Of a stretch of DNA of 64,000 nt, positions 4,485 to 55,435 are shown one piece after another; positions within the stretch are counted from its first letter, which is position 1, and every line of letters begins with the position of its first letter. The DNA comes from Bdellovibrionales bacterium (GTDB taxonomy: Bacteria; Myxococcota; XYA12-FULL-58-9; SYDY01): assembly GCA_005801425.1 (NCBI GenBank), contig SYDY01000027.1, positions 8,444-72,443 of the forward strand, given 5' to 3'. A program made the translations under genes and the position numbers. The notes under the pieces were generated by a model. The model saw only the letters and a program-made list of their open reading frames with translations, was not told the DNA's origin and did not search any database.

Positions 4485-5995
4485 TACCGATATTGATCTG
4501 ACTTGAACGGTCCTGTTGGACTGATACCAATGTAATCGGCTTGGGCTGTGGTCAGTGTTGTGAGATGTGCACCAAAGCGATCGAGATGCAAACGTGCAAC
4601 CATTTCATCCAAGGCTTTTGGCAGTGTGGTGACTGTCTTACCATACTTTTCAGCATTGAGATGCAGATCAAGCTGGGCCAACACCTGATTGGTAAATGAC
4701 GTGGACATCACAAAACTTGGATGTCCTGTGGCACAACCAAGATTCACCAAACGACCTTCAGCCAATAGGATCACGCTGTGGCCGTCAGGAAAGCGCCATT
4801 CGTGCACTTGGGGTTTGATTTCAATTTTTTCAACTTCTTTTCGGCGTCGTAGTGCTTCAAGGCCAGCCATATCGATTTCGTTATCGAAATGTCCGATGTT
4901 GCATACAATCGCACCGTGGCGCATGCGTGCCATGTGATTGGCGGAAATGATATCAAAGTTGCCTGTGGCGGTGACGTAGATATCGAAATTTTGTTCAATG
5001 GCATCGTCGATGGTGATGACATCAAGACCTTGCATGCATGCTTGCAAGGCACAAATAGGGTCGATTTCCGCAATGGCGACACGCGCTGCTTGACCGCGCA
5101 AGGATTGCACGCAGCCTTTGCCCACATCACCGAAGCCTGCGACCAAAATGCGCTTGCCTGCGAGCATGACGTCGGTTGCACGCATGATGGCATCAACCAA
5201 TGAATGCCGGCAGCCATACAAATTATCGAATTTGCTCTTGGTCACCGAGTCGTTGACGTTGATGGCAGGAAAGAGCAACGTTTTGGCTTTTTGACGCTCA
5301 TACAAACGCAACACACCGGTGGTGGTTTCTTCGGACACACCACGAATGCTTTGAGCGTAGGGTTTCCAATAGCCTGGTGCAAGGGATTGCATGTCGCGAA
5401 GCAGTGTAAGGATGATGCCTTCTTCTTCGGAGCTTGCGCCATCGACATTAGGAACGCGTCCATCACGTTCGTGCTCAAAGCCTTGGTGGATCAACAAGGT
5501 GGCATCGCCACCATCGTCTACAAGCAACGTGGGCGATTGATTGCCAGGAAAACGAAGTGCCTGCAAAGTGCACCACCAATACTCGGCAAGTGTTTCACCT
5601 TTCCAAGCAAACACCGCGACACCTTTGGGATTCGTTGCTGTTCCCGTAGGGCCTGCAACCACGGCGGCGGCGGCGTGATCTTGGGTTGAGAAAATATTGC
5701 ATGAGCACCAGCGGACTTCTGCACCCAAATCCACAAGCGTTTCAATTAAAACCGCAGTTTGAATGGTCATGTGCAAAGAACCCATGATGCGTGCGCCACG
5801 CAGGGGATTTTTGCCTTTGTATTGTGCACGCAAAGCCATAAGGCCGGGCATCTCTTCTTCGGCAAGCTCAATTTCCTTGCGACCAAAACGAACGGCTTCA
5901 GGGGTCATGGTCGCAACGCGATACGGTGCATCTTCCATGAGAGATTCTTGGGTATCGAGAAATGTAAATTCTTGGACTTTTTTGGCTGCTAACAT
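4481..5995 (-). CDS. ahcY: Adenosylhomocysteinase (S-adenosyl-L-homocysteine hydrolase)
   Basis: ORF 4481..6133. The internal Met ([10 protein letters not shown]...) aligns with the AhcY N-terminus. An NAD-binding GFGDVGKG motif is present and homology runs along the full length. The upstream 46 codons are probably not translated. Confidence 0.9.
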
Positions 5996-6081
5996 TTTTT
6001 TGTCCTTGGCTGTACCCCCACCGCTCGCTTTGCGAGCAACTCCCCCTCGCTGACGCGAAGTGGAGTGCGTGAGGATGGAAA

Positions 6082-8739: not shown

Positions 8740-8909
8740 GGGTGCCATCTCCGTGATCTGGGAAGGCATCGCTTAACGCGCTCCAGAATGGACGTCAACT
8801 CGGTGGCGTGAGAGATTATCTCTCTATCCCCGCGAAGCCCAGACAGCCCTTTGGGCCTAACAGGAAGTAGAGAAACTTGCGACGCAACGATACCACTTAT
8901 TTTTCTTAT

Positions 8910-8985
8910 GTAGGGGCGCTTCGCGAAGCGCCCGTGCGGCCTTTGAATCAACGTTTTATCGGGCGGTTCACGAACCGCCCCTACA
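8910..8985. repeat. Composite palindromic REP/MITE-like element (GTAGGGGCG...CGCCCCTAC), valS-murB intergenic
   Basis: A GTAGGGGCGCTTCGCGAAGCGCCC unit, a ~30 nt spacer, then the inverted unit GGGCGGTTCACGAACCGCCCCTAC. Member of a family seen at eight or more sites in this window. Confidence 0.85.
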
Positions 8986-9133
8986 AGAGAACACCTGCTC
9001 AATTCAAGTTTCTTAGGGAGGCGGGGATCCAGGTGCAGAACATCGGGGTTTCTGAAGGGATTACTAACTTGATGCGAGGCTGGGTCCCCGCCTTCGCGGG
9101 GATGACGTCTTCATTGATTCCGGTATTTTAAAT

Positions 9134-10174
9134 ATGGAAACTTTAGCGAAATACACAACTTTAGGGATCGGCGGGCCTTGTGCGCATATTGCCGTTGCTG
9201 GCGATAGTGAGGCTCTTTGTGCAGCACTTCGAAATGCCCCCGATGCGCTGATTTTGGGTGGCGGAAGCAATGTGGTGATCGCCGATGAAGGCTTTTCTGG
9301 CACGATCATTCGCCTCACCAACAAAACCATTGTTGTGCGCGATGAGGGATCGCATGTGCGTGTGATCGCTGATGCAGGCGTCGTGTGGGATTTTCTTGTG
9401 GCACAAACATGCCAGGCGGGATTGGCGGAGCTTGCATGCCTCTCTGGGATCCCAGGAAGTGTCGGCGCGGCGCCTGTACAAAACATAGGTGCTTATGGCA
9501 GCGAACTCGCCCAAACGCTTGATTGTGTGCATGCGATCTCGCGTGAAACCTTGCAACCCGTGAGGCTGAGCCGTGAAGCATGCGATTTTCATTATCGTCA
9601 TAGCATTTTCAAAGGCAAAGCCCGTGATCGGTTTGTGATCACGGGAATTGAATTGTGCTTAAGCAAAAAAGAACAGCCGCATATCGAACATGGTGAACTT
9701 GCGCAGGAATTGGCGTTGATTAAAGAAAAACCCGATGCAATGCGCATACGTGAAACGGTGATTGCCATTCGTCGGCGCAAATCCATGGTACTTGATGCAA
9801 ACGATGTGAACAGCCGAAGCGTGGGATCGTTTTTCATGAATCCCATCGTAGATAAGGCTACCGCGGATCATGTTGAAGAAATCATGCAGCCTATGGGCGA
9901 GCGTTGTCCTCGATTTGTGCAGGATGATGGCCGTGTGAAACTTTCCGCAGCGCGATTGCTTGAAGCCTCTGGCATCATACGTGGTTTGCAAGAGGGAGGG
10001 GCGCGTATTTCTCAGCATCATGTGCTTGCGATCACCAATATGGGGAATGCCACTGCGCGTGATGTGGTGGCGCTTGCACAGCGTATGCGCAATGCCGTTC
10101 GCGATACGTTGGGTGTGGTGCTTGTGCCCGAGCCTGTGTTTGTGGGCTTTCCTGAAGCCATGCCTCTCTGTTAG
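9134..10174 (+). CDS. murB: UDP-N-acetylenolpyruvoylglucosamine reductase
   Basis: 346-aa ORF. An FAD-binding PCMH-type N-terminus (LGIGGPCAHIAVA...GGGSNVV) and a MurB C-terminal domain. Confidence 0.9.
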   Translation: METLAKYTTLGIGGPCAHIAVAGDSEALCAALRNAPDALILGGGSNVVIADEGFSGTIIRLTNKTIVVRDEGSHVRVIADAGVVWDFLVAQTCQAGLAELACLSGIPGSVGAAPVQNIGAYGSELAQTLDCVHAISRETLQPVRLSREACDFHYRHSIFKGKARDRFVITGIELCLSKKEQPHIEHGELAQELALIKEKPDAMRIRETVIAIRRRKSMVLDANDVNSRSVGSFFMNPIVDKATADHVEEIMQPMGERCPRFVQDDGRVKLSAARLLEASGIIRGLQEGGARISQHHVLAITNMGNATARDVVALAQRMRNAVRDTLGVVLVPEPVFVGFPEAMPLC

Positions 10175-10184
10175 CTATCTGCAT

Positions 10185-11045
10185 ATGATCTCACATCCAG
10201 CCATCGTGACCTGTGCCCTTACCGGTGTTTTAACTGATCCTGCGCAACATGCTGTTCCTGTCACTCCTAAGGAAATGGCCCTCTCTGCCAAAGAAGCCCA
10301 CGACGCGGGTGCCAGTGTGGTGCATGTTCATTTTCGTCAGCAAGCCCAAGGCATGGGACGATTTCCCACGTGGGAGCCGAACGTTTGTGCAGAAATTGTC
10401 GACGCGATCCGAAGTGCATGTCCTGACATCATTATCAATATGAGTACAGGTATTGTGGGTCCGGATATATCACCTGTGGTTGCTGCTTTGCGTGCTGTGA
10501 AACCCGAAATGGCGGCACTTAATGCGGGTTCACTTAATTATTTAAAATTGCGGTCCGGAGGCCAATGGGCGTGGCCACCGATGCTTTTTGATAATCCTGT
10601 GGAGAAAGTTCAGGGTTTTATCAACGCAATGAATGAACTTGGCGTAACACCCGAATGTGAATGCTTTGATACAGGGATTTTGCGCAGTGTCATGATGTTT
10701 CAAGAAGCTGGAATGTTAAAAAAACCTGTCCATGTGTCGTTGGTGATGGGGGTCGCATCGGGAATGCCTGCGAAAGCCTCATGGTTGCCGCTGCTGCTTG
10801 AAGAGATGACACCAGGCACCCATTGGCAGGTGATCGGCATTGGACGCGAAGACGTATGGATTTTGCATCGGGCGGCAGCGCGTTTGGGTGGACATTTACG
10901 AACAGGTCTTGAAGATACGTTTTATTTACCCAGCGGCAGTAAAACCACGAGCAATGGAAAATTGGTTGAAGCATTGGTGAATATCGCGCGTGAAGAAGGA
11001 CGCAAGATCGCAACATGTGCTGAGGCGCGGCAAATGATTGCGTAA
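10185..11045 (+). CDS. kce: 3-keto-5-aminohexanoate cleavage enzyme family protein (BKACE/DUF849)
   Basis: The internal ATG at 10185 (MISHPAIVTCALTGV...) lies 11 nt after the murB stop. BKACE-type N-terminus (I(V/I)TCA(L/I)TG) and length ~286 aa. The upstream part of ORF 9960..11045 overlaps murB and is not coding. Confidence 0.75.
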   Translation: MISHPAIVTCALTGVLTDPAQHAVPVTPKEMALSAKEAHDAGASVVHVHFRQQAQGMGRFPTWEPNVCAEIVDAIRSACPDIIINMSTGIVGPDISPVVAALRAVKPEMAALNAGSLNYLKLRSGGQWAWPPMLFDNPVEKVQGFINAMNELGVTPECECFDTGILRSVMMFQEAGMLKKPVHVSLVMGVASGMPAKASWLPLLLEEMTPGTHWQVIGIGREDVWILHRAAARLGGHLRTGLEDTFYLPSGSKTTSNGKLVEALVNIAREEGRKIATCAEARQMIA

Positions 11046-11157
11046 GGTTATAATTTATTAGTTTGCGTAATATAGTTTATAGTGGCATGTTTTTGAGCGT
11101 GTTTGTTTTTCTATGGTATCGTCAGATCCCTTCCCAAACGATACTAAGGAGAACAAA

Positions 11158-12180
11158 TTGCGCCATACATCGAGGTTTCATGGTTTTTTTTGCTTGTTGT
11201 TGATGGGGTGTGCTGCTGGCAGTTCTGAAAACCAGAGATTAGGGGAAGGTCCCAATTCTCCGGCAGAAACCGGAGATCCACCTGCATGGGGACATAACGA
11301 AGGCGGTATGCCCGCCATGGGCGGTGTGGATGTGGGGCGCACGGGGGATGGAACGCATCTTAGTTATTGGGGATTCTTCTGGAAATCCACGGGGACGCCT
11401 GGTGTAGATCCCTATGCTATTTATGATTTGACAGTCGCAGGGCAAGTGATTGTCAGTTACTACGATGAAAATAACGTAACAGAAGGTGAGCAAGAATGTC
11501 ATTTTGTGGTGAATCACTACGATGAAAATGAAGGAACCAATGCAAACAGTTATTTGATCCTACAAAACGTCGCAGGTGGACCAACACCCTTTGGCTATGC
11601 GGCGGTGTACCGCAATGGACCCAAAGTATATTTGTGCGCTCCTCATGATGGCGCGGGCAATGTGCGTACCTTTGCAACAAAAGCACTTGCCGAGGCGGAT
11701 ATCACGGGAAGAGAGGATGGCATTGCTTCTGCCGATGAAACAAATCTAGGCGGTAACGGCTGCAACACCGATGTGTTTTTTACGGCCACCTCGAGCGATG
11801 GGGAGAGATGGACTTCTGGCGCGCAGGTTTATGGCGGCCTAGCCATCGCGGGTACATGGCAGGACAGTTATCCTGGCAATCTTGATCCTCCCACCACAAC
11901 TATAATTTCGAATACAGTCTGGGATGGTTTCTTCGGTGACAGAAATATCCCATGGTACGACAATACCGCCCAACAGTTGGTTTATATTTGGCCAGGTTCT
12001 CCGGATACGTACTCTGTGGTTGTTTGGACCTATGATGGCGGGCAGCTCTATTACTGTGAAGCGTCCTCTGGGCACGCAAACGCCGAAGCGGCACTCGCTG
12101 CAACATTATCATACGACGACACCGATCCTGGCACAGGGGGTTGTGGTGGCTTTGCCTGGTCTACTCTTAGTCCCCCTTAG
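11158..12180 (+). CDS. Hypothetical lipoprotein, paralog A
   Basis: ORF 11113..12180. An in-frame TTG at 11158 has AAGGAG 6 nt upstream and gives MRHTSRFHGFFCLLLMGC, a lipoprotein signal. The ATG at 11113 is an alternative start. Shares long conserved blocks with the next gene (PAWGH(N/S)EGGMPAMGG(V/A)DVGRTGDG, CHFVVNH, LQNVAGG). Confidence 0.55.
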   Translation: MRHTSRFHGFFCLLLMGCAAGSSENQRLGEGPNSPAETGDPPAWGHNEGGMPAMGGVDVGRTGDGTHLSYWGFFWKSTGTPGVDPYAIYDLTVAGQVIVSYYDENNVTEGEQECHFVVNHYDENEGTNANSYLILQNVAGGPTPFGYAAVYRNGPKVYLCAPHDGAGNVRTFATKALAEADITGREDGIASADETNLGGNGCNTDVFFTATSSDGERWTSGAQVYGGLAIAGTWQDSYPGNLDPPTTTIISNTVWDGFFGDRNIPWYDNTAQQLVYIWPGSPDTYSVVVWTYDGGQLYYCEASSGHANAEAALAATLSYDDTDPGTGGCGGFAWSTLSPP

Positions 12181-12321
12181 TTTTTCCCAAAAGATATAAG
12201 TGCATTTTTGTCCTCGGCTGTCCTGCGTCATGACTGCCGTTTGACAATGCCCGCCAAATTTTCAAAAAATATTTTTTCCTACGGTATCTTAGATCTTGCC
12301 TCACAGAACATTGGAGAAAAT

Positions 12322-13029
12322 GTGATTCACAAAACACGATTACATGGTGTGTGCTGTGTGTTGTTGATGGGATGTGCTGCAGGAAGCGCAGAAAGCCAGA
12401 ACCCAGAACAAAGCCAAAACGTGCCTTCCGAAGAGCCTGCTGCATGGGGACATAGCGAAGGGGGCATGCCTGCCATGGGCGGTGCGGATGTGGGGCGCAC
12501 CGGCGATGGGTCACATCTCAGATATTGGGGGGGATTTTGGAAAACGCCTACGGTGTCGAATGCGTATGATGTTTATGATATGACGATAGCCGGGCAGCTT
12601 ATTGTTACGCATTATGTGGACAACGTGCAACAGGGTGAATCAGAATGTCATTTCGTGGTGAATCACATCGATGAGCAAGCCGAGATTGATAACTACCGGG
12701 ATAGCTACTTGTTTCTGCAAAACGTAGCAGGTGGCGCAACCCCATTTAGCTATGTCGCCTTACACAAGAAAAATACAGGTACTGTTCCACTCCCTGTTTA
12801 TACACTGTTCATGTGCTTTCGTAACAATGCTGACGATACAAGGCATACTTTTTCGTCGCAAGCACTTGCCGAAGCGGATCTTGATTATCCCGAAGGTCCT
12901 GGGCGCCTCAATGCGGATGAAGAGCTCGAGGCTCCCGGCCAACTTGGATGCAATAAAGACATATCATTTACCCCCGCGCCGGCGACCGTCGGACGGGATT
13001 GGCTCACCGCGACAGTGTATACACCTTAA
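12322..13029 (+). CDS. Hypothetical lipoprotein, paralog B
   Basis: ORF 12208..13029. An in-frame GTG at 12322 is preceded by GGAGAAAA and gives VIHKTRLHGVCCVLLMGC (signal plus lipobox). The conserved blocks are shared with paralog A. Confidence 0.55.
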   Translation: MIHKTRLHGVCCVLLMGCAAGSAESQNPEQSQNVPSEEPAAWGHSEGGMPAMGGADVGRTGDGSHLRYWGGFWKTPTVSNAYDVYDMTIAGQLIVTHYVDNVQQGESECHFVVNHIDEQAEIDNYRDSYLFLQNVAGGATPFSYVALHKKNTGTVPLPVYTLFMCFRNNADDTRHTFSSQALAEADLDYPEGPGRLNADEELEAPGQLGCNKDISFTPAPATVGRDWLTATVYTP

Positions 13030-15212
13030 AGCGCCTTCAAAAAAGCGATCAACGCATTTTTGTCTTCGACAGACAGATTGCGGAATTTATTGCGCGAAGC
13101 TTCACCTTCTCCTGCGTGGCCCTCGATGGCTTCTTCCAACGTATCGGCAGCGCCTGAGTGAAGATAGGGTGCTGTTTGAGCGATACCCCACAAAGGCGGA
13201 GTGCGGAATTCATGGATCCCAGCAGGTCCATCTTCAATACCCAATGCATCTTCAGGCAAGATCGCATGCAAGAGCAGATCCGAATAGAGAAGCACTGGCG
13301 TGCCCGATCCATCGAGGCTCGGAATATGGCAGCTATCACAACCGAGTGTTCCAAAAATCTGTTCACCCTTTTGTTCCGTTGCTCCGCGTGGTCCAGGGAG
13401 TGGTGGTCCCAATGCGGCGACGAAAACGAGCAGATTGCGCATATCTGCGTCGGATGAGAATTCGGGATCATCCACCAGATCATCGTCGTGTTCTCGGCCG
13501 AATGTGAGTGGTGCTTGGTGCATGACAGTGATCCCAAGTTCAGCACTTGTTGCATCACGCATAAATTCGGCGAGACTCGGTACCTGTGCTTTCCAACCAA
13601 ATCGCCCAAGTCGGCCGTCCTGAAGAATCGCCGCGCGACCACTGATCCCATCAGCATTTTGATCGGTTGGATCTTCATTGTGTAAAATGGCGTTATCAGG
13701 AATTTTGTCCACAAGCCCAAGGCCCAACAAAGATGGCGTTTGGCGATGTTCAAAAACATTGATTGTAGGATCCGCAAAGACAGCACCGTTGTGGATGGCT
13801 GTGTGTTTGTGCAGAATTGTTCCACCGGCAGGTGTTTGGAATAGTCCATCAGAAAGAATTCCGTGGCGGATAACATTCACATCGTTGGGCCCTGCACCTC
13901 CTATGGCCGGTTGAAAATGACAGGCTCGGCATGAATCCGCATTAAATCGTGGTGAGCCAAGCCCCTGTGAGATCCCAATGTCGGCATCAAACAATCTTCG
14001 GCCCGCGAGGAAGATCTTTTCAATATAAGGGATCAGGGTTTCACTGGGGCCTCCCAAGCTTCCTGCCTCAGGCATGGGCGTATTGGGAGGAAGTAAACCT
14101 TGGCTTTTTGCGTAAGATCCACCCAATGATTTTAAAAACACAAGCAATGCGTTTTGATCGTCAGGACCAGCGGCTTGGAATTTTGTTCGAGAGGCCTCCG
14201 CCTCACCACCGTGCATCACAATAGCTTCTTTAATACTGGAAGCACGGCCATCGTGAAGGTATGGCCCAGTCGCTGCAATGCCCCACAAGGGCTGTGTACG
14301 AAATTCAGAACCACTTGCACGCTGCATCGTGATCCCATCGGCAAGATCGGGTCCCATGTCGTGCAGCAAAAGATCGCTAAAGAGATGAAGTGGCCCACGT
14401 GGAGAGAGAAGAGATGGCGTATGGCATGCGTTACAACCAAAATTGATAAATTGAGATTGTCCTCGTGTGCTTGTAGTGCTTAGGGGATCCAACTGGGGTG
14501 CAGCCAGTTGCGTCGCAAAGCTTACCAGATCCGAGAGGTCGTTGTCTGATAATTCAGGATCGGCAATATCATCTGTGTCTGTCTCGTTTTGCGTGGTGAT
14601 ACCCATGTGGTTCAATAACGAATGACGTACAATGCTTGCGATATCGGCGCTTTGCGCTTTGAGACCGAATCGACCAAGCTTTGATCCTTCATAGTTGGCG
14701 CGGCCACTGATCCCATCGGCATTCAAATCATCGGGATCTTCCCGCTGCATGATTTCGTGATCGGAAATTTCCTGAAGAAGCCCCATACCAAAAAGAGGGA
14801 CCGCATTTCGCTGTGCTGTGGATGCAATGGCGTGGTCGACGGCGGGGCGCGCAGAGATACCGGATCCGTAACCATACGCACGTATGATCACATGATCTGT
14901 AAGAACATAATTGCGATACAGCGAACTTGCGCCGCCGATCACGGGTCGCTCATGGCATGCAGCGCAGGATACAGCATTCAAAGTGGGGCCTACCCCCTCG
15001 GCATGTGTAAAGTGTTTGGCTGCCAATACTTTCCCTCGCTCAAAGGCCTGACGTTCTTCCTGGCTGATGGATGGAATACTCTCGCCAAGAGATGCCATGA
15101 GATCGCTTCCGAGTGGTGTATTCCTTGAATTGTCTCCATCGCGATGCTGGGCGCATCCTAGGGTCCCAGAGAGGATCAGCACGCATGATGCGAAAATAAT
15201 CCTATGGTGCAT
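13026..15212 (-). CDS. Di-haem cytochrome c peroxidase-like oxidoreductase (DUF1111 family), internally duplicated with four CXXCH motifs
   Basis: 728-aa ORF with an N-terminal signal (MHHRIIFASCVLILSGTLGC). Haem motifs CAACH, CNACH, CRACH and CDSCH. The N and C halves are repeated (DPDDLNADGISGRANYEGSKLGRFGLKAQ versus DPTDQNADGISGRAAILQDGRLGRFGWKAQ). Confidence 0.7.
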   Translation of the reverse strand: MHHRIIFASCVLILSGTLGCAQHRDGDNSRNTPLGSDLMASLGESIPSISQEERQAFERGKVLAAKHFTHAEGVGPTLNAVSCAACHERPVIGGASSLYRNYVLTDHVIIRAYGYGSGISARPAVDHAIASTAQRNAVPLFGMGLLQEISDHEIMQREDPDDLNADGISGRANYEGSKLGRFGLKAQSADIASIVRHSLLNHMGITTQNETDTDDIADPELSDNDLSDLVSFATQLAAPQLDPLSTTSTRGQSQFINFGCNACHTPSLLSPRGPLHLFSDLLLHDMGPDLADGITMQRASGSEFRTQPLWGIAATGPYLHDGRASSIKEAIVMHGGEAEASRTKFQAAGPDDQNALLVFLKSLGGSYAKSQGLLPPNTPMPEAGSLGGPSETLIPYIEKIFLAGRRLFDADIGISQGLGSPRFNADSCRACHFQPAIGGAGPNDVNVIRHGILSDGLFQTPAGGTILHKHTAIHNGAVFADPTINVFEHRQTPSLLGLGLVDKIPDNAILHNEDPTDQNADGISGRAAILQDGRLGRFGWKAQVPSLAEFMRDATSAELGITVMHQAPLTFGREHDDDLVDDPEFSSDADMRNLLVFVAALGPPLPGPRGATEQKGEQIFGTLGCDSCHIPSLDGSGTPVLLYSDLLLHAILPEDALGIEDGPAGIHEFRTPPLWGIAQTAPYLHSGAADTLEEAIEGHAGEGEASRNKFRNLSVEDKNALIAFLKAL

Positions 15213-15302: not shown

Positions 15303-15485
15303 ATGAAGTTATTAATTGATCGAAGTGTTGTCTTTTTTACCGTATTATTCAGCACAGGTGTTGCGCATGCGATGATGCCTGAAATATCGCCTTCGAGCTT
15401 TCTTTCGCTGATATCGATGATTGGTGGCGGATGGGTTTTGTTCCGATATCGCCAGTACAGTTCAGCGCGCAGCAATAAGAGCTAA
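15303..15485 (+). CDS. Small secreted protein consisting only of a signal peptide and a PEP/VPEID-CTERM-like sorting signal (putative exosortase substrate)
   Basis: 60 aa. AAGGAG lies 7 nt upstream of the ATG. The layout is MKLLIDRSVVFFTVLFSTGVAHA signal peptide, then MPEIS, then a TM segment (FLSLISMIGGGWVLF), then RYRQ plus a tail. It sits 4 nt upstream of the exosortase gene. Confidence 0.6.
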   Translation: MKLLIDRSVVFFTVLFSTGVAHAMMPEISPSSFLSLISMIGGGWVLFRYRQYSSARSNKS

Positions 15486-15491
15486 TGCGTG

Positions 15492-16817
15492 ATGCTCGAT
15501 GCCAATGAGATCAGGCAATGGCTTGATTTCAACGTCGGATCTTTTCGGTTATCGCCTGTGTGGGTGCTCGTCTATTGGCCTATTCTTGTTGGCATCGCTG
15601 CTGCGTTTGCGTTGCGTAAAATCAAAAAAAATGAAGTGATTCGGCGTTACGGCATTCTTCTTGTGTTGCCATTGCTTATCAATATCGTGTTGCTGTTCAC
15701 GGGATGGTTTTTTCACGAGCGTATGGGACAACGCATCGATCATGCCTTGGTTCAGCATGCTGTGATTGCACCTGTGTCATGGATTTTTAATACTTTGCTT
15801 CAGATCCCTGTGATCAGAGATCAGCCTCTCCATATCGGTGTTGATTCCTTTTCTGGCTACATCGCGCCAAGTTGCGCAGGAACCCAAGGATTGTTTATTT
15901 TTACGATGCTTGCTGGCGCATGGTATTTTGTTCTTCGTCCGACGACTTTTCGGCATCGATTGATTTATTTGGTGCTTATGTGCGTTGGTCTTTGTTTGGG
16001 TTTTGTCGGCAATTGGCTGCGTCTTGTTGCGTTGCTTTATGTTGGGGCACGTGTTGATCGCGATCTGGCCCTCGCAGGATTTCATGACGCTGCAGGTGGG
16101 ATCATTGTGCTGTTGAATTTTGCATTGTTTGCGTGGGTCACGCATCGTGCATTGAAGGGTGATGATGGCAAAGCATGGTTTGCGGGCAATCCTGTGGTGC
16201 CCTATGTAATGCCTTGGATGGTGTGGATGGCATTGGGGATGCTTTCTGCGCTGGTCACGGTGCAATGGGATTGGTCGTATCCGTTGCGTGCTGTGATTGT
16301 ATTTATCATCCTAGGGGTGCTGGCTGCGCCTTTTCCTCAGACAATGATAAGGGCGGTTCGCGAACCGCCCCTACAGTCTGTTCTTGCAGGTCTATTCATC
16401 GCAGCTGTATGGATTATTTGGGGCCATTACGTGCTCGACCATGACTTTGCAGGTCGCATGCCAACTTCACTACGTTTTTATCACATGTGGATCGTCGGTC
16501 GCATTTTAGGAACCGTACTTCTGATTCCAGTGATTGAAGAACTCGCTTTTCGTGGATTTCTTGCGCGCGCTTTACAAAAGCCCATGTTTCAAGATCTCAC
16601 GCCATCGGATCTTCGTTGGCCGGCCATGCTTATTTCATCGGTGATTTTTGGTGTTTTTCACGACGCGCTTGCGGTCCCAGGCGTGGGTGCCGGATTTATA
16701 TTTGCGTTGCTTTATCGCAAGAGTGGGACGCTTGCATCCCCGATCATTGCGCATGCTGTTGCAAATCTTGGTGTCGCTTTGTACGCGCTAACCACAGGGC
16801 AGTGGCAGCATCTTTAA
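15492..16817 (+). CDS. Exosortase fused to a CPBP (CAAX protease/Abi) intramembrane metalloprotease domain (exosortase E/protease-like)
   Basis: N-terminal polytopic domain with the exosortase Cys motif (IAPSCAGTQG), GNWLRLV (Asn/Arg) and a GFHDAAGG His motif. C-terminal CPBP motifs EELAFRGF, FGVFH and HAVAN. The ORF's GTG at 15489 is an alternative start. Confidence 0.75.
   Translation: MLDANEIRQWLDFNVGSFRLSPVWVLVYWPILVGIAAAFALRKIKKNEVIRRYGILLVLPLLINIVLLFTGWFFHERMGQRIDHALVQHAVIAPVSWIFNTLLQIPVIRDQPLHIGVDSFSGYIAPSCAGTQGLFIFTMLAGAWYFVLRPTTFRHRLIYLVLMCVGLCLGFVGNWLRLVALLYVGARVDRDLALAGFHDAAGGIIVLLNFALFAWVTHRALKGDDGKAWFAGNPVVPYVMPWMVWMALGMLSALVTVQWDWSYPLRAVIVFIILGVLAAPFPQTMIRAVREPPLQSVLAGLFIAAVWIIWGHYVLDHDFAGRMPTSLRFYHMWIVGRILGTVLLIPVIEELAFRGFLARALQKPMFQDLTPSDLRWPAMLISSVIFGVFHDALAVPGVGAGFIFALLYRKSGTLASPIIAHAVANLGVALYALTTGQWQHL
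16351..16374. repeat. Single REP-like unit (GGGCGGTTCGCGAACCGCCCCTAC) inserted in-frame within the exosortase-CPBP coding sequence
   Basis: Exact match to the repeat family unit. It translates as (R)AVREPPLQ(S) at the junction between the exosortase and CPBP domains. Confidence 0.8.
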
Positions 16818-19100: not shown

Positions 19101-19183
19101 TGGTAACCGCTCAGGAGATCTGGGCCATCGTATCTAAAATTGTTTCAGCGATCTCTGTTTAAGCATATCGTTAGCGTTGCCTT

Positions 19184-19663
19184 GCCATCCGTGTGCAGGT
19201 CCTCGCACGTCCACAAAAGCCACGTGACGCGCATGACTTTTGACTTGAATGTGTGTTTCTTGAGCGCGTCACAACGCTTTTGTGTCTTGTGCTCCGGTCC
19301 GTTCACACGGCAAGTGGCAAGGCAACGCTGTTTAGGGTTCGATGATTTTTCAGCCATCGCAGAGCCGGAGTTCCCGATTTTGCGGGGATGGCATCTTGAT
19401 ATGATCGGGCTGCATATCTACATATGTGACCAAGAGCGAGATACACGGGGTTCAATTTCAATCATAGAATGTTATCTGTTCTCTTTTGGTATACATGGTT
19501 AGTGTGACATGACAGCAAGCAGTGTCTCGCCACTTGCCGTGTGAACGGACCGGAGCACAAGACACAAAAGCGTTGTGACGCGTTTAAAAAATCCACTTCA
19601 CATCAAAATTTTATGCGCGTCACGTGGCTTTTGTGGACGTGCGAGGACCTGCACACGGATGGC
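19184..19663. repeat. Large imperfect inverted repeat (two perfect arm blocks of 51 and 54 bp separated by a symmetric 30-nt mismatch, with a 210-nt central loop)
   Basis: 19184-19234 is the reverse complement of 19613-19663, and 19265-19318 is the reverse complement of 19529-19582. The 30-nt segments 19235-19264 and 19583-19612 are not complementary. Intergenic between the ALDH gene and the GGDEF gene. Confidence 0.9.
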
Positions 19664-28893: not shown

Positions 28894-29181
28894 ATGGCCA
28901 CGATGATTACGGAAGAATGCATTAATTGCGGCGCTTGTGAGCCGGAATGCCCCAACGAGGCCATCAGCGAAGGTGAGGACATTTTTATTATCGATCCCGA
29001 TCGTTGCACCGAATGTGTCGGTCATTTCGATACCGAGCAATGCGCTGCGGTATGTCCGGTCAATTGCTGTGTCACCGATCCCAACAACGAAGAAGCCGAG
29101 GCCCCTTTGCTCGCCCGCGCCAAGGTGGTTCATCCCTTGAAGATTTTTCCCGCCGATTATCCCTCGCGGTTTCGTCAGTAA
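28894..29181 (+). CDS. 2x[4Fe-4S] ferredoxin (YfhL-like)
   Basis: 95 aa with CINCGACEPECP and CTECVGH...C...CP cluster motifs. Confidence 0.8.
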   Translation: MATMITEECINCGACEPECPNEAISEGEDIFIIDPDRCTECVGHFDTEQCAAVCPVNCCVTDPNNEEAEAPLLARAKVVHPLKIFPADYPSRFRQ

Positions 29182-29954
29182 GGGTCTGCGAAAGTCTTAA
29201 ACGCACGTGCCAGTGATACTTTTCGATCATCTTTGAGAAAACTGTTGATGGTTTTTCCGTCAATGGCTGTCGCCTGATCGGGATTGCGTAAGTTGAACGT
29301 GGCGCGTGCGATCCCTGCCGCAAAAAAGCCAATGCATGTGACGGTTCCGTCGGCATCCACTTTTTCGACGATGGCGACCTGGGCAGGAATATCGGATGCT
29401 TTGCCAGTATTAAGAAAAACAAGGTCGCCGATTTTGGGATGTTCGCGGTGCAATTGTCGATTGCGATCTACCGATCGGTACAACACTTCCATGCCTTTGA
29501 TGTGATCACGTCGATAAACTGCAGGATGGATGATCTCCATATGGGCGCTCCAAAATGCTGCGCGCACCAAGCCGATGGGATCGGATTCAAATTTATAGCC
29601 GCGCACAAGCAGCGGTTGGCCCGATAAGAACTTTTTGGCTGCAGCAACCACGTGACTGCGTTTGCCCTGATTGGTGTCTTCTGACTTGTGATGTAGGGTA
29701 TCCGATGTGGAGAAGCTGATCACTTGAAGCAAGGCAGGCGCCCTTGGGCCTGTTGTGCAGGAAACACAGAAAAATATTATAATGGAATTAAAAAGAGCGG
29801 TTCGCTTTTTACGATCTGTTTTTCTCTTGTAGGGGCGCTTCGCGAAGCGCCCGTGCGGTTTTTGATTCAAAGTTTTATCGGGCGGCTCACGAGCCGCCCC
29901 TACTGGCAAGGCAATTTTGAATGGGGACCTCAATATAACCGCCTCGATGCGCAT
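29175..29954 (-). CDS. Hypothetical exported protein, distantly NlpC/P60-like (no catalytic Cys seen)
   Basis: 259-aa ORF starting at the ATG at 29954. The first ~30 codons read through palindromic element 29829-29903 (…GAAREPP…RFAKRPYKRK), followed by a hydrophobic segment ALFNSIIIFFCVSC. The family assignment is weak. Confidence 0.4.
   Translation of the reverse strand: MRIEAVILRSPFKIALPVGAAREPPDKTLNQKPHGRFAKRPYKRKTDRKKRTALFNSIIIFFCVSCTTGPRAPALLQVISFSTSDTLHHKSEDTNQGKRSHVVAAAKKFLSGQPLLVRGYKFESDPIGLVRAAFWSAHMEIIHPAVYRRDHIKGMEVLYRSVDRNRQLHREHPKIGDLVFLNTGKASDIPAQVAIVEKVDADGTVTCIGFFAAGIARATFNLRNPDQATAIDGKTINSFLKDDRKVSLARAFKTFADPY
29829..29903. repeat. Composite palindromic REP/MITE-like element, near-identical to the 8910-8985 copy
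   Basis: GTAGGGGCGCTTCGCGAAGCGCCC-GTGCGG-TTTTGATTCAA-AGTTTTATCG-GGCGGCTCACGAGCCGCCCCTAC. Located inside the 5' region of ORF 29175..29954. Confidence 0.85.
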
Positions 29955-34011: not shown

Positions 34012-36741
34012 TCAATGCGCTTCTGCCCATGTTCGTCCATGACCAACGTCCACCACGAGGGGGACATGAAGGCGCATGACGTGGCACATGTGATCGCGCA
34101 AAAGCGCTTGAACAGTCTCTGTGTGCTCCACAGGGCATTCGACGACCAACTCATCGTGGACTTGCAAAAGAAGATGGGCATCTAATTTCAAATTCGACAA
34201 GGCTTGATGGACACGGATCATCGCTAATTTGATAAGATCGGCGGCGCTACCTTGCAAGGGCGTATTCATGGCAATGCGTTCGGCCCCGCGTCGTACATTC
34301 ATATTGCGACTGTTTAAATCGGGCAAATAACGGCGTCTACCGCTGATGGTGCTGACAAAACCAGCATGCCGACCCTCTTCAATGGTTTTATCTAGAAAGG
34401 TTCGGATCCCAGGATAACGTGCAAAATAACGTTGGATATATGCAGAAGCTTCAGCCCGTCCAATATGAAGCTGTTTGGCCAAGCCAAATTCACTGAGGCC
34501 ATAGAGAATACCAAAATTAATGGCTTTGGCGCGTCTTCGTGCTTCTGCATCGGGTGGTGCGCCGCCTGTGAGAATTTCTTGCGCGGTTCGGCGGTGAATA
34601 TCTTCGCCATTAATAAACGCATCGCGAAAACTTTGATCATCACAAAGATGCGCAAGAATGCGCAATTCAATTTGTGAATAATCGGCAGAAACCAATACAT
34701 AACCTTCATCCGCGACAAACGCTTTTCGGATGCGTAAACCATCTTCCGTGCGAATGGGGATATTTTGCAAATTGGGATCGGAGCTTGAAAGTCTGCCAGT
34801 GGCAGTGCCGGTCTGGCGGTAGCTTGTGTGTACACGACCTGTACGTGGATTAAGCATTTTAGGAAGTGAGTCGACGTAGGTGGAGCATAATTTGGCCAGC
34901 ATACGATGTTCGATGATCCATCCTGCCAAGGGATAGGTTTCGGCAAGTTGTTCGAGCACTTCTTGATCGGTGCTAAAGCCTGTTTTTGTCTTTTTGAGGG
35001 CTGGATAGCCAAGCTCAACAAATAAAAGTTCGGCAAGTTGTTTGGGGCTTGCAAGATTGATTTCGTGACCCACTTCACGCACGATCCGTTGCTCAACTTC
35101 TGTCATTCTTCCACTAAATTCCACGGACAATGCTGCAAGTGCATCGAGATCAACCCGGATCCCCTTGGTTTCCATGGCGGCCAATACAGGAATAAGCGGA
35201 AGCTCTATATTGCGATACACATCGTCCAACGGTGTGCCCTGCAGTTTGGCAGAAAAATGCTGGCAGAGTTGCAGCGCAATATCGGCATCTTCTGCCGCGT
35301 AGGCTGTGGCTTCATCGACGGGAACCTGATCAAAGCCCACTTTGCCCTCGGGTCGTGTTGTCACATCTTCATAGGTGATCGTTTTGTAGCCAAGTGCTTG
35401 GTGTGCGAGGCTGTCCATGCTGAAGGATGCACGTGTGGGATCGAGCACGTAGGCAGCAAGCATCGAATCATCACGAATGCCTGCCAGTTGTATGCCGTGA
35501 TTGAGAAGCACCATCATGTCGTATTTCAGATTTTGTCCCAGCTTGCCGATCTTCGGATTTTCAAAAATCGGTTTCATCGCATGTAAAACATCTTCGTTGC
35601 TCAGATGCAGTGGCACTTTCTCGTCGTGATGCCCGGTTGGAATATAGCATGCATCATCGCTTGTCGTTGCCAATGAAAATCCGACAATATGTGCCTCGGT
35701 GGTATCAAGCGAAGTTGTTTCGAGATCGACACTCACAAAACCAACTTTTTGTATGCGTGCGATGATTGTGTTGAGATCGTTGATCGTAAGTATCGTTTTA
35801 TAATTGCGCTCAGGAATTGGCAAAGTCGTTTGGGTTTGGAATAAATCCTGTTGATTGGGAGGCGCTGGTTTAACAGGGTTCGAACGATGAAGATCACGGA
35901 GCAGCGATGAAGCTTCGATGCGTTCTAGAAAGGGTGCGAGGCGTGCTTCTTCTGGATGGCTGTAGCGCAGGGCATCAAGATCAAGCGCCACGGGGACGTG
36001 GCTATCCAAAGTGACCAGTCGCATGGACAATCGTGCACTTTCGATATGATCAATTACCGATTGTTCGGCTGCTTTGCGTTTTTGCACGCTTTGAAGTCCG
36101 CGGTAAACCGCTTCAATATCGCCATACGTATTGATTAATTTGGCAGCCGTTTTCACACCCACTTTGGGCACGCCCGGAATATTGTCGCTGGTGTCACCGG
36201 CCATGGCTTGAACTTGCGTGACGAGATTTGGGGGAACACCAAATTTTTCAATCACATCGGCATCGCTCATGTCTTTGTCTTTCATGGGATCAAAGAGCGC
36301 GATGCCTTCTTGCATCAATTGCATGAGATCTTTATCGGAACTTACAACCACAACCTGGTGTCCAGCCGCATGGGCTTTTTGTGCCAGAGTCGCAATGATA
36401 TCATCGGCTTCGTAGCCAGGGTTATACAGTACCGGAATGCCCATGGCCTCAACCAATTCACGGATCAATGCAAATTGGGGAACAAGATCTTCAGGCGGTT
36501 CTTCGCGATTGGCTTTGTATTCGGCATAAATGTTTTTTCTAAAATTTTCTCGTGAATCAAATGCAATGCCCAAATAATGGGGTGATCTGTCTTTGATCAA
36601 TTTGAGCAACATGCGCGCGGTGCCTATGACCGCGTTGGTGGGGGTACCATCGCGTGTGGATAACGGGCGTATGGCATAATAGGCACGAAAAATGAAACCG
36701 CTACCATCAACAAGGTACACTTTTTCTTCAGACAAACTCAT
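34012..36741 (-). CDS. polA: DNA polymerase I
   Basis: 909 aa with 5'-3' exonuclease, 3'-5' exonuclease and polymerase domains (…RRRAKAINFGILYGLS…, …LLQVHDELVVE…). Confidence 0.95.
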   Translation of the reverse strand: MSLSEEKVYLVDGSGFIFRAYYAIRPLSTRDGTPTNAVIGTARMLLKLIKDRSPHYLGIAFDSRENFRKNIYAEYKANREEPPEDLVPQFALIRELVEAMGIPVLYNPGYEADDIIATLAQKAHAAGHQVVVVSSDKDLMQLMQEGIALFDPMKDKDMSDADVIEKFGVPPNLVTQVQAMAGDTSDNIPGVPKVGVKTAAKLINTYGDIEAVYRGLQSVQKRKAAEQSVIDHIESARLSMRLVTLDSHVPVALDLDALRYSHPEEARLAPFLERIEASSLLRDLHRSNPVKPAPPNQQDLFQTQTTLPIPERNYKTILTINDLNTIIARIQKVGFVSVDLETTSLDTTEAHIVGFSLATTSDDACYIPTGHHDEKVPLHLSNEDVLHAMKPIFENPKIGKLGQNLKYDMMVLLNHGIQLAGIRDDSMLAAYVLDPTRASFSMDSLAHQALGYKTITYEDVTTRPEGKVGFDQVPVDEATAYAAEDADIALQLCQHFSAKLQGTPLDDVYRNIELPLIPVLAAMETKGIRVDLDALAALSVEFSGRMTEVEQRIVREVGHEINLASPKQLAELLFVELGYPALKKTKTGFSTDQEVLEQLAETYPLAGWIIEHRMLAKLCSTYVDSLPKMLNPRTGRVHTSYRQTGTATGRLSSSDPNLQNIPIRTEDGLRIRKAFVADEGYVLVSADYSQIELRILAHLCDDQSFRDAFINGEDIHRRTAQEILTGGAPPDAEARRRAKAINFGILYGLSEFGLAKQLHIGRAEASAYIQRYFARYPGIRTFLDKTIEEGRHAGFVSTISGRRRYLPDLNSRNMNVRRGAERIAMNTPLQGSAADLIKLAMIRVHQALSNLKLDAHLLLQVHDELVVECPVEHTETVQALLRDHMCHVMRLHVPLVVDVGHGRTWAEAH

Positions 36742-37961
36742 GGTTTTGGAATCGTTTCATCGTAAATTTTTAGACCGCGAATGGCCGTTGAATAGTAGGC
36801 GATCACAAGACGACCTTGGCTGTCTGCAGCCATGGCAAGATATTTCCCCACGGGGCCTTCGGTGTCGATGACGGTATGCGTCCATACGCCGCTCGCATAG
36901 CGCAAAAGATCAAACGTTTCGTGGTCGGGCCGCCTCGGGGTGATATGCTCAAAGGCAATGGCCAAATCACCGTTGGGCAATTGCGCTTGTGCCATATTGC
37001 CGACGCCCTTAAACACGCGCTGATCATGCCATGTTCCGGTGCTGTCTTGTTCTGCAACACGGATATTGATGGGGAGACCGGCTGTGTACGTCACACGCGG
37101 CAATTGACCGACCCAGCTTAATTGACTGTGCCAACCATGGGAATGATCTTCTCCGATGCGTTCTTGTTTGAGTGCATTGAGTGGGCCATGGGCCACGTAA
37201 AGTTCGGTGTCTCGGGCATTCCAATCCACAAAAGAGATCCACCATTGATCGCCCTGTTGCTGTACATCGATGCGGGCAGAATATCCGCCGGTGGCGTCAA
37301 ATAGGATGGTTTTTACCCACTCGCCATCTTTGGGCCCGCGTGTGGCATGGACCAATTTTCCACCGGCTGTGTAATAAAAAACATGCGGACTATTTTGTGC
37401 GTCAAATCGCAATTCCGCACCCATGCCGACTTCATGGCCCCATGCAATCTCTTCGGTTTTCCAAGGTGCAGCTTCGTTGTCGCGCGTTGCGATGCGTAAC
37501 TTTTTCTGATCTTGATCGTGAAATGCGATGGCAAGGTGATTATTTTTGTCGGAAGCGATTGACGTGTATTTGCCTATATTGCCTTGGGTGATGACGTCTT
37601 CAACAACCCATGAATCGCCATGTTTTGTGGCGTATTTAAGATCGCCTTGGTGGGCATCGCAAAAGCTGACGTGGGGTCGGTCTTTGGCATCAAAGATAAC
37701 GCTTGGCCACCATCCTGTGTCGCCTTCTTCACCGCCACTTGCAAGGACGCCTAAACTTGCATGCGGTGGATTTTGTTCTTCGACAACAACGATGTTTTTT
37801 GTGCATGCGGTGAGGATAAGCAAAATCACTGCAAGGCATTTATAGGTAGGGGTGGTTCGTGAACCGCCCTTAACAAAATCGTCATTCTCATGAATACGGG
37901 GTTCTGTGAAGAAGGGCGGTTTGCGAACCGCCCCTACAACGCTGCAATTCTTTCTCTTCAC
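36738..37961 (-). CDS. Hypothetical lipoprotein with beta-propeller-like repeats
   Basis: The ATG at 37961 overlaps the holA stop (ATGA). The N-terminus reads through repeat element 37846-37937 (…VGAVRKPP…GGSRTTPTY), then KCLAVILLILTAC (lipobox LTAC). The mature part contains repeated W/D-rich blades. Confidence 0.55.
   Translation of the reverse strand: MKRKNCSVVGAVRKPPFFTEPRIHENDDFVKGGSRTTPTYKCLAVILLILTACTKNIVVVEEQNPPHASLGVLASGGEEGDTGWWPSVIFDAKDRPHVSFCDAHQGDLKYATKHGDSWVVEDVITQGNIGKYTSIASDKNNHLAIAFHDQDQKKLRIATRDNEAAPWKTEEIAWGHEVGMGAELRFDAQNSPHVFYYTAGGKLVHATRGPKDGEWVKTILFDATGGYSARIDVQQQGDQWWISFVDWNARDTELYVAHGPLNALKQERIGEDHSHGWHSQLSWVGQLPRVTYTAGLPINIRVAEQDSTGTWHDQRVFKGVGNMAQAQLPNGDLAIAFEHITPRRPDHETFDLLRYASGVWTHTVIDTEGPVGKYLAMAADSQGRLVIAYYSTAIRGLKIYDETIPKP
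37846..37937. repeat. Composite palindromic REP/MITE-like element embedded in the 5' end of a lipoprotein gene
   Basis: GTAGGGGTGGTTCGTGAACCGCCC, a 44-nt spacer, then GGGCGGTTTGCGAACCGCCCCTAC. Confidence 0.85.
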
Positions 37962-45268: not shown

Positions 45269-45359
45269 GTAGGGGCGGTTCGCGAACCGCCCTGTTGTTC
45301 TCAATACATTGTTCGCGCCAATACGTTTGCCTAACGGGCCGTTCACGAACGGCCCCTAC
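45269..45359. repeat. Composite palindromic REP/MITE-like element
   Basis: GTAGGGGCGGTTCGCGAACCGCCC, a 43-nt spacer, then GGGCCGTTCACGAACGGCCCCTAC. It lies between rodA and a truncated nucleotidyltransferase ORF. Confidence 0.85.
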
Positions 45360-50480: not shown

Positions 50481-51209
50481 TTAAGGTAAATCCGCAATCT
50501 TTGATGGTGTTAAATCCCAGGTCATTTGAGTGGTTCCAAGTGCGCTTGCGATGCGCATAACAAACTTGGTGGTATGGGGCTCTATGACCAATTTGTCTGT
50601 GGGGTCAATCAGAGGAAAGCGGACCAAATACGCTCGGTCAAAATCCCCGAGATAGCCATAAACGGCTTTTAAATTGGCATCGATTTTGACCCGTGAAATT
50701 TGGGCGGCCTGAACGGTAATATTCTGATCCGGATTGGTGAGCGTGATGCGCCAAATGGAGTCTGCGCGATCAAGGTCGTTCCATTTGAGATCGGGTGTAT
50801 AGGCTTTGAGTAAAAACGTATGGAACGTTTCGGCGTCGCTTGAAAGATCAACCAATTCGCGGCGTGTAACCTCGCCCCCATGACCGTAGATATCGGGGAA
50901 TTTTAAACCGAATGCACGCCTAAATTGCGGGGCATGAAATGTTGATGATGCAAACAATACATTGTCGAGAACATTGTAGAGTTTGGCATGTCGTGTCCAT
51001 TGGGCGAACGTACGATCGTAATCACGATCGTCAACTTCGCTGATAGAACCGAACAGTGTAGGCGGTGGGATAGGTTTGCATGCCGAAAGGAGCGCGAGCA
51101 AGATGAAGGCAAGGGCGGTTCGCGAACCGCCCCTACAAAAAAACAGTGTGGGGGTCGTTCGTGAACGACCCTTATTTAATAAAATCAGATTTCTTAAAGA
51201 GACTCGCAT
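50481..51209 (-). CDS. Hypothetical lipoprotein
   Basis: ORF 50481..51350 overlaps pyrE upstream. The first ATG at 51209 gives MRVSLRNLILLNKGRSRTTPTLFFCRGGSRTALAFILLALLSAC (lipobox LSAC). This N-terminus is encoded by repeat units 51113-51170. Start uncertain. Confidence 0.45.
   Translation of the reverse strand: MRVSLRNLILLNKGRSRTTPTLFFCRGGSRTALAFILLALLSACKPIPPPTLFGSISEVDDRDYDRTFAQWTRHAKLYNVLDNVLFASSTFHAPQFRRAFGLKFPDIYGHGGEVTRRELVDLSSDAETFHTFLLKAYTPDLKWNDLDRADSIWRITLTNPDQNITVQAAQISRVKIDANLKAVYGYLGDFDRAYLVRFPLIDPTDKLVIEPHTTKFVMRIASALGTTQMTWDLTPSKIADLP
51113..51170. repeat. Two adjacent REP-like units (GGGCGGTTCGCGAACCGCCCCTAC, a short A-rich spacer, then GTGGGGGTCGTTCGTGAACGACCC)
   Basis: The units are arranged opposite to the composite elements elsewhere (inverted unit first). 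Located at the pyrE 3' end and the lipoprotein 5' end. Confidence 0.8.
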
Positions 51210-51750
51210 AGGGGAGACCCGTCGCACGAATGTTGTTGGCACCGTTGTCCTCTTCCCTGTCCACCAAAGCAAGTACTGCAATGGGCAGCAAGCCTTCCTC
51301 ACGCACGCGTTCGATAGCCCGCAAGGTGGAACCGCCGGTGGTGACCACATCTTCGATCACCAGGACTGGATCGCCAATTTTTAGCGCTTTTAGACCTTCG
51401 ATCCAGCGACCAGTTCCATGGCCTTTGGGCTCTTTGCGCACGATAAATGCGTGGGCTGGGGCGCCCTTTTGTTGGCTGATCACGGCTGCGGCCGCAGCCA
51501 TGGGATCGGCGCCGAGCGTAATGCCGCCAACGCCTACGATGGTTGCGCCTTCATGACGCAGTGTTTGAATGTGTTCAAAAATCAATTCACCGATCAGCAG
51601 ACATCCTTCGGCTTGAAGTGCCGTTTGTTTGCAATCGACATAAAAATCGCTGGTTTTGCCAGATGCCAAGGTAAAAGTTCCGGTACGCACCGAATATTCT
51701 TGGAGCAATTGGCGGAGTCTGTTGATTTTATCGGTATTGAAATTTGTCAT
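51172..51750 (-). CDS. pyrE: Orotate phosphoribosyltransferase
   Basis: 192 aa with the PRPP-binding motif (VLVIEDVVTTGGS). Confidence 0.9.
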   Translation of the reverse strand: MTNFNTDKINRLRQLLQEYSVRTGTFTLASGKTSDFYVDCKQTALQAEGCLLIGELIFEHIQTLRHEGATIVGVGGITLGADPMAAAAAVISQQKGAPAHAFIVRKEPKGHGTGRWIEGLKALKIGDPVLVIEDVVTTGGSTLRAIERVREEGLLPIAVLALVDREEDNGANNIRATGLPYASLFKKSDFIK

Positions 51751-55379: not shown

Positions 55380-55411
55380 GGATGTATTTTGCATTGTACA
55401 ACCTTGCTCAA

Positions 55412-55435
55412 GGGCGGTTCGCGAACCGCCCCTAC
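55412..55435. repeat. Single REP-like unit (GGGCGGTTCGCGAACCGCCCCTAC), followed by a GC-rich hairpin
   Basis: Exact family unit upstream of hemL. The adjacent sequence CGCCCCCGCCTTCGCGAGGG resembles the CCCCGCCTTCGCGGGG hairpin at 9084-9100. Confidence 0.8.

Follow-up and report, generated by a model that had tools for sequence, protein, structure and literature searches.

The 64-kb stretch of DNA analysed here (64,000 nucleotides of contig SYDY01000027.1 from a Bdellovibrionales bacterium, hereafter the window) bears a gene coding for an exosortase fused to a CPBP/Rce1-like glutamic intramembrane protease, and a palindromic unit of 24-27 nt lies in frame within this gene. The unit is one copy of a GTAG-tagged family of repetitive extragenic palindromes (REPs) that has multiplied in this genome. 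The best reading of the arrangement, which we consider probable, is that the unit was inserted into an already existing fusion gene and was tolerated there; the insertion is inferred and was not observed as such.

The palindromic unit and its family in the window

The window reads exactly GGGCGGTTCGCGAACCGCCCCTAC at positions 16351-16374, within the 442-aa open reading frame (ORF) 15489..16817 of the plus strand, where the 24 bases are in frame and leave the frame unbroken. Codons 288-296 give R-A-V-R-E-P-P-L-Q (RAVREPPLQ) and are followed by S297. A first-pass annotation of the window had proposed both a perfect copy of a REP-like unit in the exosortase-CPBP coding sequence and its in-frame translation as (R)AVREPPLQ(S), and both proposals were borne out. 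The unit is described by the following features:

16351..16374, minus strand: REP unit, on the minus strand 5'-GTAG followed by GGGCGGTTCGCGAACCGCCC, with perfect 10-bp palindrome arms; plus-strand translation (R)AVREPPL(Q)
16349..16375, minus strand: extended 27-nt unit (AA, the 24-mer and A), the same in all three singlets of the window

The GTAG is unpaired and lies at 16371-16374 of the minus strand; the remaining 20 nt form a perfect palindrome, with the GC-rich hairpin that is expected of GTAG REPs (20-40 bp). The hairpin alone folded as RNA with an energy of -14.2 kcal/mol. Only one of the unit's six reading frames contained a stop codon, and deletion of the unit in silico also kept the host frame open, either when 24 nt were removed (CAGACAATGATAAAGTCTGTT, reading ...PQTMIKSVLAG...) or when 27 nt were removed (CAGACAATGATGTCTGTT, reading ...PQTMMSVLAG...).

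When both strands of the window were searched allowing up to three mismatches, we obtained 14 matches, which make up 11 units; the expectation derived from 100 shuffles was 0.00. Every one of the 11 units had GTAG at one end of the 20-nt palindrome. They were arranged as four head-to-head (HH) dimers, with the GTAG ends outward and 27-44 nt between the units, and as three singlets (16351, 51113 and 55412) sharing one identical 27-mer, AAGGGCGGTTCGCGAACCGCCCCTACA. Apart from the copy in the exosortase gene, the sites were these:

8910..8984, no strand assigned: HH dimer, between the valyl-tRNA synthetase (ValRS) and MurB genes
29829..29903, no strand assigned: HH dimer, overlapping the 5' end of ORF 29175..29954 (minus strand)
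37846..37937, no strand assigned: HH dimer, overlapping the 5' end of ORF 36738..37961 (minus strand)
45269..45359, no strand assigned: HH dimer, intergenic
51109..51136, minus strand: singlet with the identical 27-mer, overlapping the 5' end of ORF 50481..51350 (minus strand)
55408..55435, minus strand: singlet with the identical 27-mer, intergenic

Only the copy at 16351 was found deep inside a conserved protein body, while three sites overlapped the 5' ends of ORFs. A function as intrinsic terminator was considered and rejected: on the hairpin strand, the singlets run into A-runs and not into T-runs. A lone GTAG hairpin with a different stem, GTAGGGGCAGACCTCCGTGTCTGCCC, was seen at 28072-28097, indicating a second GTAG-REP family in the genome.

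The host gene and its product

The gene that carries the unit and its upstream neighbour were delimited as follows:

15489..16817, plus strand: host gene, exosortase (aa ~62-219) and CPBP/Rce1-like glutamic intramembrane protease (aa ~254-440); likely ATG at 15492
15303..15485, plus strand: 60-aa ORF directly upstream of the host gene, with a signal peptide (..GVAHA), MPEIS, a hydrophobic segment and a basic tail

The best NCBIfam match of the host protein was TIGR04162 (exosortase E/protease, VPEID-CTERM system), with 148.1 bits and an E value of 4e-43 over aa 84-440; TIGR03008 (CAAX prenyl protease-related protein) matched aa 254-440 with 114 bits, and the Pfam families PF09721 (Exosortase_EpsH) and PF02517 (Rce1-like) matched aa 62-218 and 334-427, respectively. 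In an alignment of 24 sequences, including 22 distant homologues, the exosortase catalytic residues C129, R178 and H199 were invariant, as were the CPBP residues E350-E351-R355 (EExxxR), F387-H391 (FxxxH) and H422-N426 (HxxxN); the host protein kept all 30 invariant columns, both catalytic sets included. Judged by its sequence, the protein retains all catalytic residues and probably still works.

The 60-aa ORF upstream was annotated as a gene in public assemblies and was the sole ORF of the window with such a C-terminal pattern. None of the NCBIfam models, that of VPEID-CTERM included, matched it at E<=0.1. We propose it as a candidate for a minimal exosortase substrate of the VPEID-CTERM type, which would contain little beyond the sorting signal.

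Comparison of the window with a contig of the European Nucleotide Archive (ENA) over 21,326 aligned nt (99.953% identity) placed all 10 differences in a 92-nt patch at 15847-15938, in the exosortase domain around the catalytic Cys129. They comprised nine transitions and one transversion, occurred at all four bases, and led to S120F, T132V, M140I and G143V, five of the changes being synonymous. This patch resembles a short tract of recombination or gene conversion, or strain micro-heterogeneity; a diversity-generating retroelement was rejected as its source, given that the changes were not adenine-specific.

Position of the unit in the protein

The exosortase matches reach no further than aa 218-219 and the match to stand-alone CPBP proteins (TIGR03008) starts as early as aa 254, so the unit (aa 288-296) is within the CPBP module and not at the domain junction, where the first-pass annotation had placed it. 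Its description as a linker between the two domains was loosely right, as the unit does lie between the Pfam cores, which end and begin at 218 and 334, but the segment in question is a loop inside the CPBP module.

This loop was delimited in an AlphaFold2 model built from the homologue alignment (mean predicted local distance difference test, pLDDT, 74.8), which had a helix at 264-277, coil at 278-294 and a further helix at 295-315, with pLDDT going down to 65 in the block 281-290:

16320..16370, plus strand: predicted non-helical loop, codons 278-294, between the transmembrane helices 264-277 and 295-315

According to the model, the REP encodes the loop from its middle to its C-terminal end and continues for two residues into the following helix. 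R288 and R291, both encoded by the REP, are the only basic residues of the loop, which would be cytoplasmic by the positive-inside rule, the homologues having 4-5 basic residues there.

Origin of the arrangement

All of the 42 distant homologues obtained in the protein search (<=35% identity, several phyla) carried both the exosortase and the CPBP parts, and RAVREPPLQ was present in none of them. On this sequence comparison, the exosortase-CPBP fusion is far older than the unit, because all 42 homologues lacking the peptide are already fused and the query matches TIGR04162, a curated family of fusion proteins. The insertion of the unit into a pre-existing fusion gene, one of the two origins put forward in the first-pass annotation, is supported as the probable one by homologues without the residues, by the predicted coil at the site, by the preserved catalytic residues and by in-frame copies of the same unit in unrelated genes (described below). 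The exactness of the unit, the over-representation and REP anatomy of its family, and the RayT-like genes with the same palindrome also speak for it. The linker residues are not shared by the homologues, a finding that agrees with insertion. The 8-10-residue insertion expected from an alignment was confirmed in part: the peptide was absent from the homologues (all at <=35% identity), but only four residues were extra in comparison with the profile.

By analogy with the REP/RAYT pairs that have been studied, an HUH/Y1 REP-associated tyrosine transposase (RayT/TnpA-REP) would cut REP units in the form of folded single-stranded DNA hairpins and join them again, and this is the route of arrival that we infer here. 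One copy would have landed in the already fused gene, where the DNA codes for a short loop connecting two transmembrane helices of the protease module. After landing, the ORF would have stayed open because the unit's length is divisible by three and stops occur in only one of its six frames, and the unit would now be translated as RAVREPPLQ, forming the C-terminal half of the loop and supplying its only two arginines.

Several observations weigh against tolerated insertion. A RayT/Y1 transposase gene was not found in the window by tblastn. An empty-site orthologue was found neither by the protein search, nor by protein-pattern scans of genome and metagenome contigs, nor among three ValRS relatives. 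The protein database and the genome and metagenome collections held no orthologue between 35% and 99% identity, and the sole close relative in the protein search was a 99% allele with the identical unit. The nearest ValRS, with 64% identity, belonged to a metagenome-assembled genome labelled Myxococcota, which indicates a deep lineage, and at the three nearest ValRS loci (60-64% identity) synteny with the window was lacking and neither an exosortase gene nor a REP copy was present.

The loop itself raises a further difficulty. In the profile of 22 homologues only v-r-e-p appeared as insert states, that is, the loop was four residues longer than the family profile and not eight. APFPQTMIRA aligned to the conserved basic loop of the family, 'frreyrrldwrv', and the motif R..YR..dWR of that loop was missing from the host protein. 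The TIGR03008 match placed 187 residues on 191 profile positions, without net lengthening. Four extra residues and a missing basic motif are not what a canonical loop with a plain 24- or 27-nt addition would show; either this lineage had a short loop beforehand, or codons of the ancestral loop disappeared at about the time when the unit was inserted. As to the function of the product, the TIGR04162 score remained under the curated cutoff of 150 for the whole protein, the N-terminus was ~100 aa shorter than those of the homologues, and residues 1-80 were poorly modelled by AlphaFold2.

The absence of R..YR..dWR, together with R288 and R291 being the only basic residues of the loop, would also be expected if the unit had been put to use, its two arginines serving as the positive-inside signal of the loop in place of the family motif. 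Another use could lie in the message, where the hairpin (-14 kcal/mol) would modulate translation or decay between the two halves. The perfect match of this copy to the consensus and the energy of its hairpin agree with such exaptation. Nevertheless, the comparison is limited to two near-identical alleles, between which conservation is not measurable, and a recent insertion would account for the perfect identity just as well, all three singlets being identical; we regard exaptation as unlikely.

It is more doubtful still that the host gene is decaying and that the REP is just one lesion in a pseudogene, tolerated for want of selection. The shortened N-terminus with its low-confidence model, the score just under the TIGR04162 cutoff, the lost loop motif and the packing of 10/10 allele differences in 92 nt of the gene could be taken as signs of decay, but the ORF of 442 codons is intact, all 30 invariant columns and both catalytic sets are kept, and a matching candidate substrate gene lies directly upstream.

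The first-pass annotation had offered, as its second origin, that the insertion joined two formerly separate genes for an exosortase and a CPBP protease. The location of the unit between the Pfam-defined cores of the two domains is what speaks for it. This origin is contradicted by the 42 distant homologues from several phyla, already fused without the peptide, by the curated fusion family TIGR04162, and by the position of the unit, which begins ~35 residues into the part shared with stand-alone CPBP proteins; we reject it as highly improbable. Short-read assemblers can be confused by short palindromic repeats, but a palindrome introduced by mis-assembly at a repeat is practically excluded here: four or more contigs of 20-350 kb, drawn from NCBI and from no fewer than two ENA assemblies (ERZ27257033, ERZ27257035), show the in-frame unit with identical junctions, both allelic versions of the gene have it, the frame is kept, and the flanks on both sides align to homologues.

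Copies of the unit at other sites

The unit had been regarded in the first-pass annotation as this genome's own, a view that did not hold: species-representative genomes of many phyla contained the exact 24-mer, in at least 119 stretches altogether. Among the matches listed were Chloroflexota, Acidobacteriota, Nitrospinota, Cyanobacteriota, Myxococcota, Desulfobacterota, Planctomycetota and Bacteroidota, as well as the isolates Thiothrix fructosivorans, Desulfacinum infernum and Parabacteroides, and many of these listed matches had the full 28-nt palindrome GTAG...CTAC.

We examined 144 copies of the unit in the fetched loci (numbered L below) for open frames, and 30 of them lay in open stretches with at least 60 codons on either side. 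Two cases were clear. A cyanobacterial Hydantoinase_B protein (hydantoinase B/oxoprolinase; L008, 4240-5862, minus strand) gave one continuous Pfam match across the in-frame unit (E 6e-204), with a net insertion of exactly eight residues relative to PDB 7hk5, and in a protein with DUF7948, SBBP and Por-secretion-tail regions (L015, 2980-5592, plus strand) the DUF7948 match spanned an in-frame REP dimer. At the level of sequence, these matches prove that both copies lie in real genes. A different situation was seen in a locus from Dehalococcoidia (L057, 4255-5000), a dense array of several different GTAG-type palindromes with long spurious ORFs on both strands, whose in-frame readings were GNHEGCPY, GQPRGLPLR and VGATLVVAL, alongside VGAVREPPL and GGSRTAPT.

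Within the window, the REPs at 29829-29903, 37846-37937 and 51109-51136 were in frame at the 5' ends of three minus-strand ORFs, the last of them with a degenerate REP unit beside it, at ~51147-51173. Lipobox-like signal sequences followed just downstream of the three REPs (..IIIFFCVSC, ..AVILLILTAC and ..ILLALLSAC), and we did not see a good start codon between REP and lipobox in these ORFs. The Arg-rich peptides encoded by the REPs may be translated as the n-regions of signal peptides in the three ORFs, or these may have non-canonical starts.

The palindrome inside RayT coding sequences

In several loci, the 24-mer was found inside ORFs of ~190 aa matching Pfam Y1_Tnp. Their best NCBIfam match was NF047646 (REP-associated tyrosine transposase), with E values of 1e-16 to 1e-19, below the curated cutoff. 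In these RayT-like proteins the palindrome invariably gave (R)GGSRTAPT, and its position in the alignment was constant, directly behind the HUH motif. The genes of this clade, variants included, were located as follows:

L058, 1835-2419 and 106-753, minus strand: RayT-like genes with internal palindrome
L119, 2346-2936, minus strand: RayT-like gene with internal palindrome
L047, 187-765, and L012, 1-282, plus strand: RayT-like genes with internal palindrome
L124, L125 and L126, 10001 to ~10576: RayT-like genes with internal palindrome

At the same site, a paralogue in L058 had GTAG palindromes with different stems, arranged in frame as an HH dimer. In L125, a JGI metagenome contig, the RayT gene was located inside a type I restriction-modification operon (3864-13719) composed of HsdM, DUF1016, HsdS, a reverse-transcriptase RVT_1 gene, a 54-aa ORF, RayT and HsdR.

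The protein search assigned at least 7,956 proteins to this clade at E<=1e-10, named RayT by their sources. The motif G-x-S-R-x-A-P-T was present in 108 of the 120 top proteins, a proportion to be read with the fact that the query carried the motif, which favours motif-bearing matches. The variable residues formed a pair allowed by a perfect palindrome in 109 of 111 instances of the motif (G/T, D/I, G/P, G/S, G/A, A/S or A/C), and the Asp was paired with Ile every time it occurred (8/8). Three variant genes had perfect 28-nt palindromes at the DNA level (GTAGGGGCGGGTCGCGACCCGCCCCTAC, GTAGGGGCGATTCGCGAATCGCCCCTAC and GTAGGGGCGCTTCGCGAAGCGCCCCTAC), with compensatory double substitutions (GT/AC, GG/CC, AT/AT and CT/AG) and the peptide variants GDSRIAPT, GGSRPAPT and GASRSAPT. 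No further GTAG hairpin was found within 10-20 kb of these three loci, so the unit has not proliferated around them, unlike in the window. A comparison of the RayT with solved structures gave no match at E<=1.

A tentative interpretation is that the palindrome of the exosortase gene is a dispersed copy of a structured element carried in frame inside a RayT clade that crosses phyla, in which the transposase gene would carry its own substrate, as a 'seed' or as an autoregulatory hairpin. The identical 24-mer in many phyla would be explained in this way. The element would have been shaped as coding-compatible, with five of six frames open and with loop-friendly peptides rich in Gly, Ser, Arg and Pro, because it is translated inside RayT. 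If this is true, copies that survive in frame in host genes would reflect a predictable trait of the family and would be no accident, for which the exosortase gene, the hydantoinase B gene, the DUF7948 protein and possibly the leader peptides of the three lipoprotein-like genes of the window would be examples. No mention of a RayT-internal REP was found in the literature searched (including Nunvar 2010, Bertels 2017 and Quentin 2018), which is weak evidence, figures not having been covered.

Unrelated to the REP family, the window also contained an inverted repeat with arms of ~140 nt and ~91% identity (19181-19318 and 19523-19663), located between an aldehyde dehydrogenase gene and a GGDEF response-regulator gene.

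Comparison with known systems

The units of the window resemble the GTAG REPs of Di Nocera, De Gregorio and Rocco (2013, BMC Genomics 14:522; PMC3733652) in being short GC-rich palindromes with an unpaired GTAG at one end that occur as singlets and HH dimers. The dimer units of those REPs are 20-100 bp apart, and most REPs are extragenic, with some in-frame intragenic copies; the window units are likewise mostly extragenic. Neither the text nor the searched supplements of that paper contained the exact stem sequence, and the exact 20-mer, GGSRTAPT, AVREPPL and GRFANRPY gave no match in the literature search or in those supplements. The same authors described intragenic REPs of the GTAG and CGTC types, in genes whose proteins are known, and proposed them to be neutral, lying in 'flexible linkers or loops', and the in-frame insertions of RPE, BRE, BOX and RUP elements were reviewed by Delihas (2011; PMC3184786). 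Unlike the cases of Di Nocera et al., which are mostly in genes of DNA replication and repair, the copy studied here lies in a gene for a polytopic membrane enzyme, and it stands in the place of a conserved loop motif rather than simply adding residues.

With Rickettsia palindromic elements (RPE; Ogata et al. 2000, as cited in PMC3733652 and PMC3184786), the unit shares the presence of in-frame palindromes in genes that probably still encode functional proteins. It differs from RPE-1, which is Rickettsia-specific and reaches ~146 bp in the table of PMC3184786, in having 24-28 nt and a host lineage whose nearest ValRS is from Myxococcota, and it does not qualify as an RPE-1; the short rickettsial intragenic repeats RPE-4 and RPE-6 have been assigned to the CGTC and not to the GTAG super-family (PMC3733652). 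The resemblance to RPE is in behaviour only. The host protein has the same two-domain architecture and catalytic residues as the TIGR04162 system and differs from its members in a score of 148.1 against the cutoff of 150, in an N-terminus ~100 aa shorter, and in REP-encoded residues in place of R..YR..dWR.

As in the REPIN/RAYT systems (Nunvar 2010, PMC2817692; Bertels and Rainey 2011, PMC3116915; PMC8266576), GTAG hairpins are dispersed and form inverted doublets, and an HUH/Y1 transposase clade named RayT carries the same palindrome as the window unit. In vitro, RAYTs process the single-stranded REPs that are cognate to them, an activity dependent on both the hairpin and the GTAG motif (Corneloup 2021, PMC8266576). 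Three differences were apparent. The cognate RayT was not seen in the window; the 24-mer is identical across phyla, whereas REP families are usually lineage-specific; and the palindrome is internal to the coding sequence of RayT, where its site behind the HUH motif is fixed, while in the REPtrons described REPs flank the RAYT gene.

In-frame intragenic GTAG REPs had thus already been described, and the exosortase copy adds one more example, unusual only in its host, a polytopic membrane enzyme, and in the REP residues standing in for a conserved loop. For annotation, AVREPPL, GGSRTAPT and GRFANRPY in predicted proteins mark REP copies and not native sequence. The palindrome inside RayT is the more interesting lead and could matter more than the exosortase copy itself: if the REP were an obligatory structured element of the RayT gene, it would give a testable handle on how REPs and transposases are matched and how new genomes are seeded.

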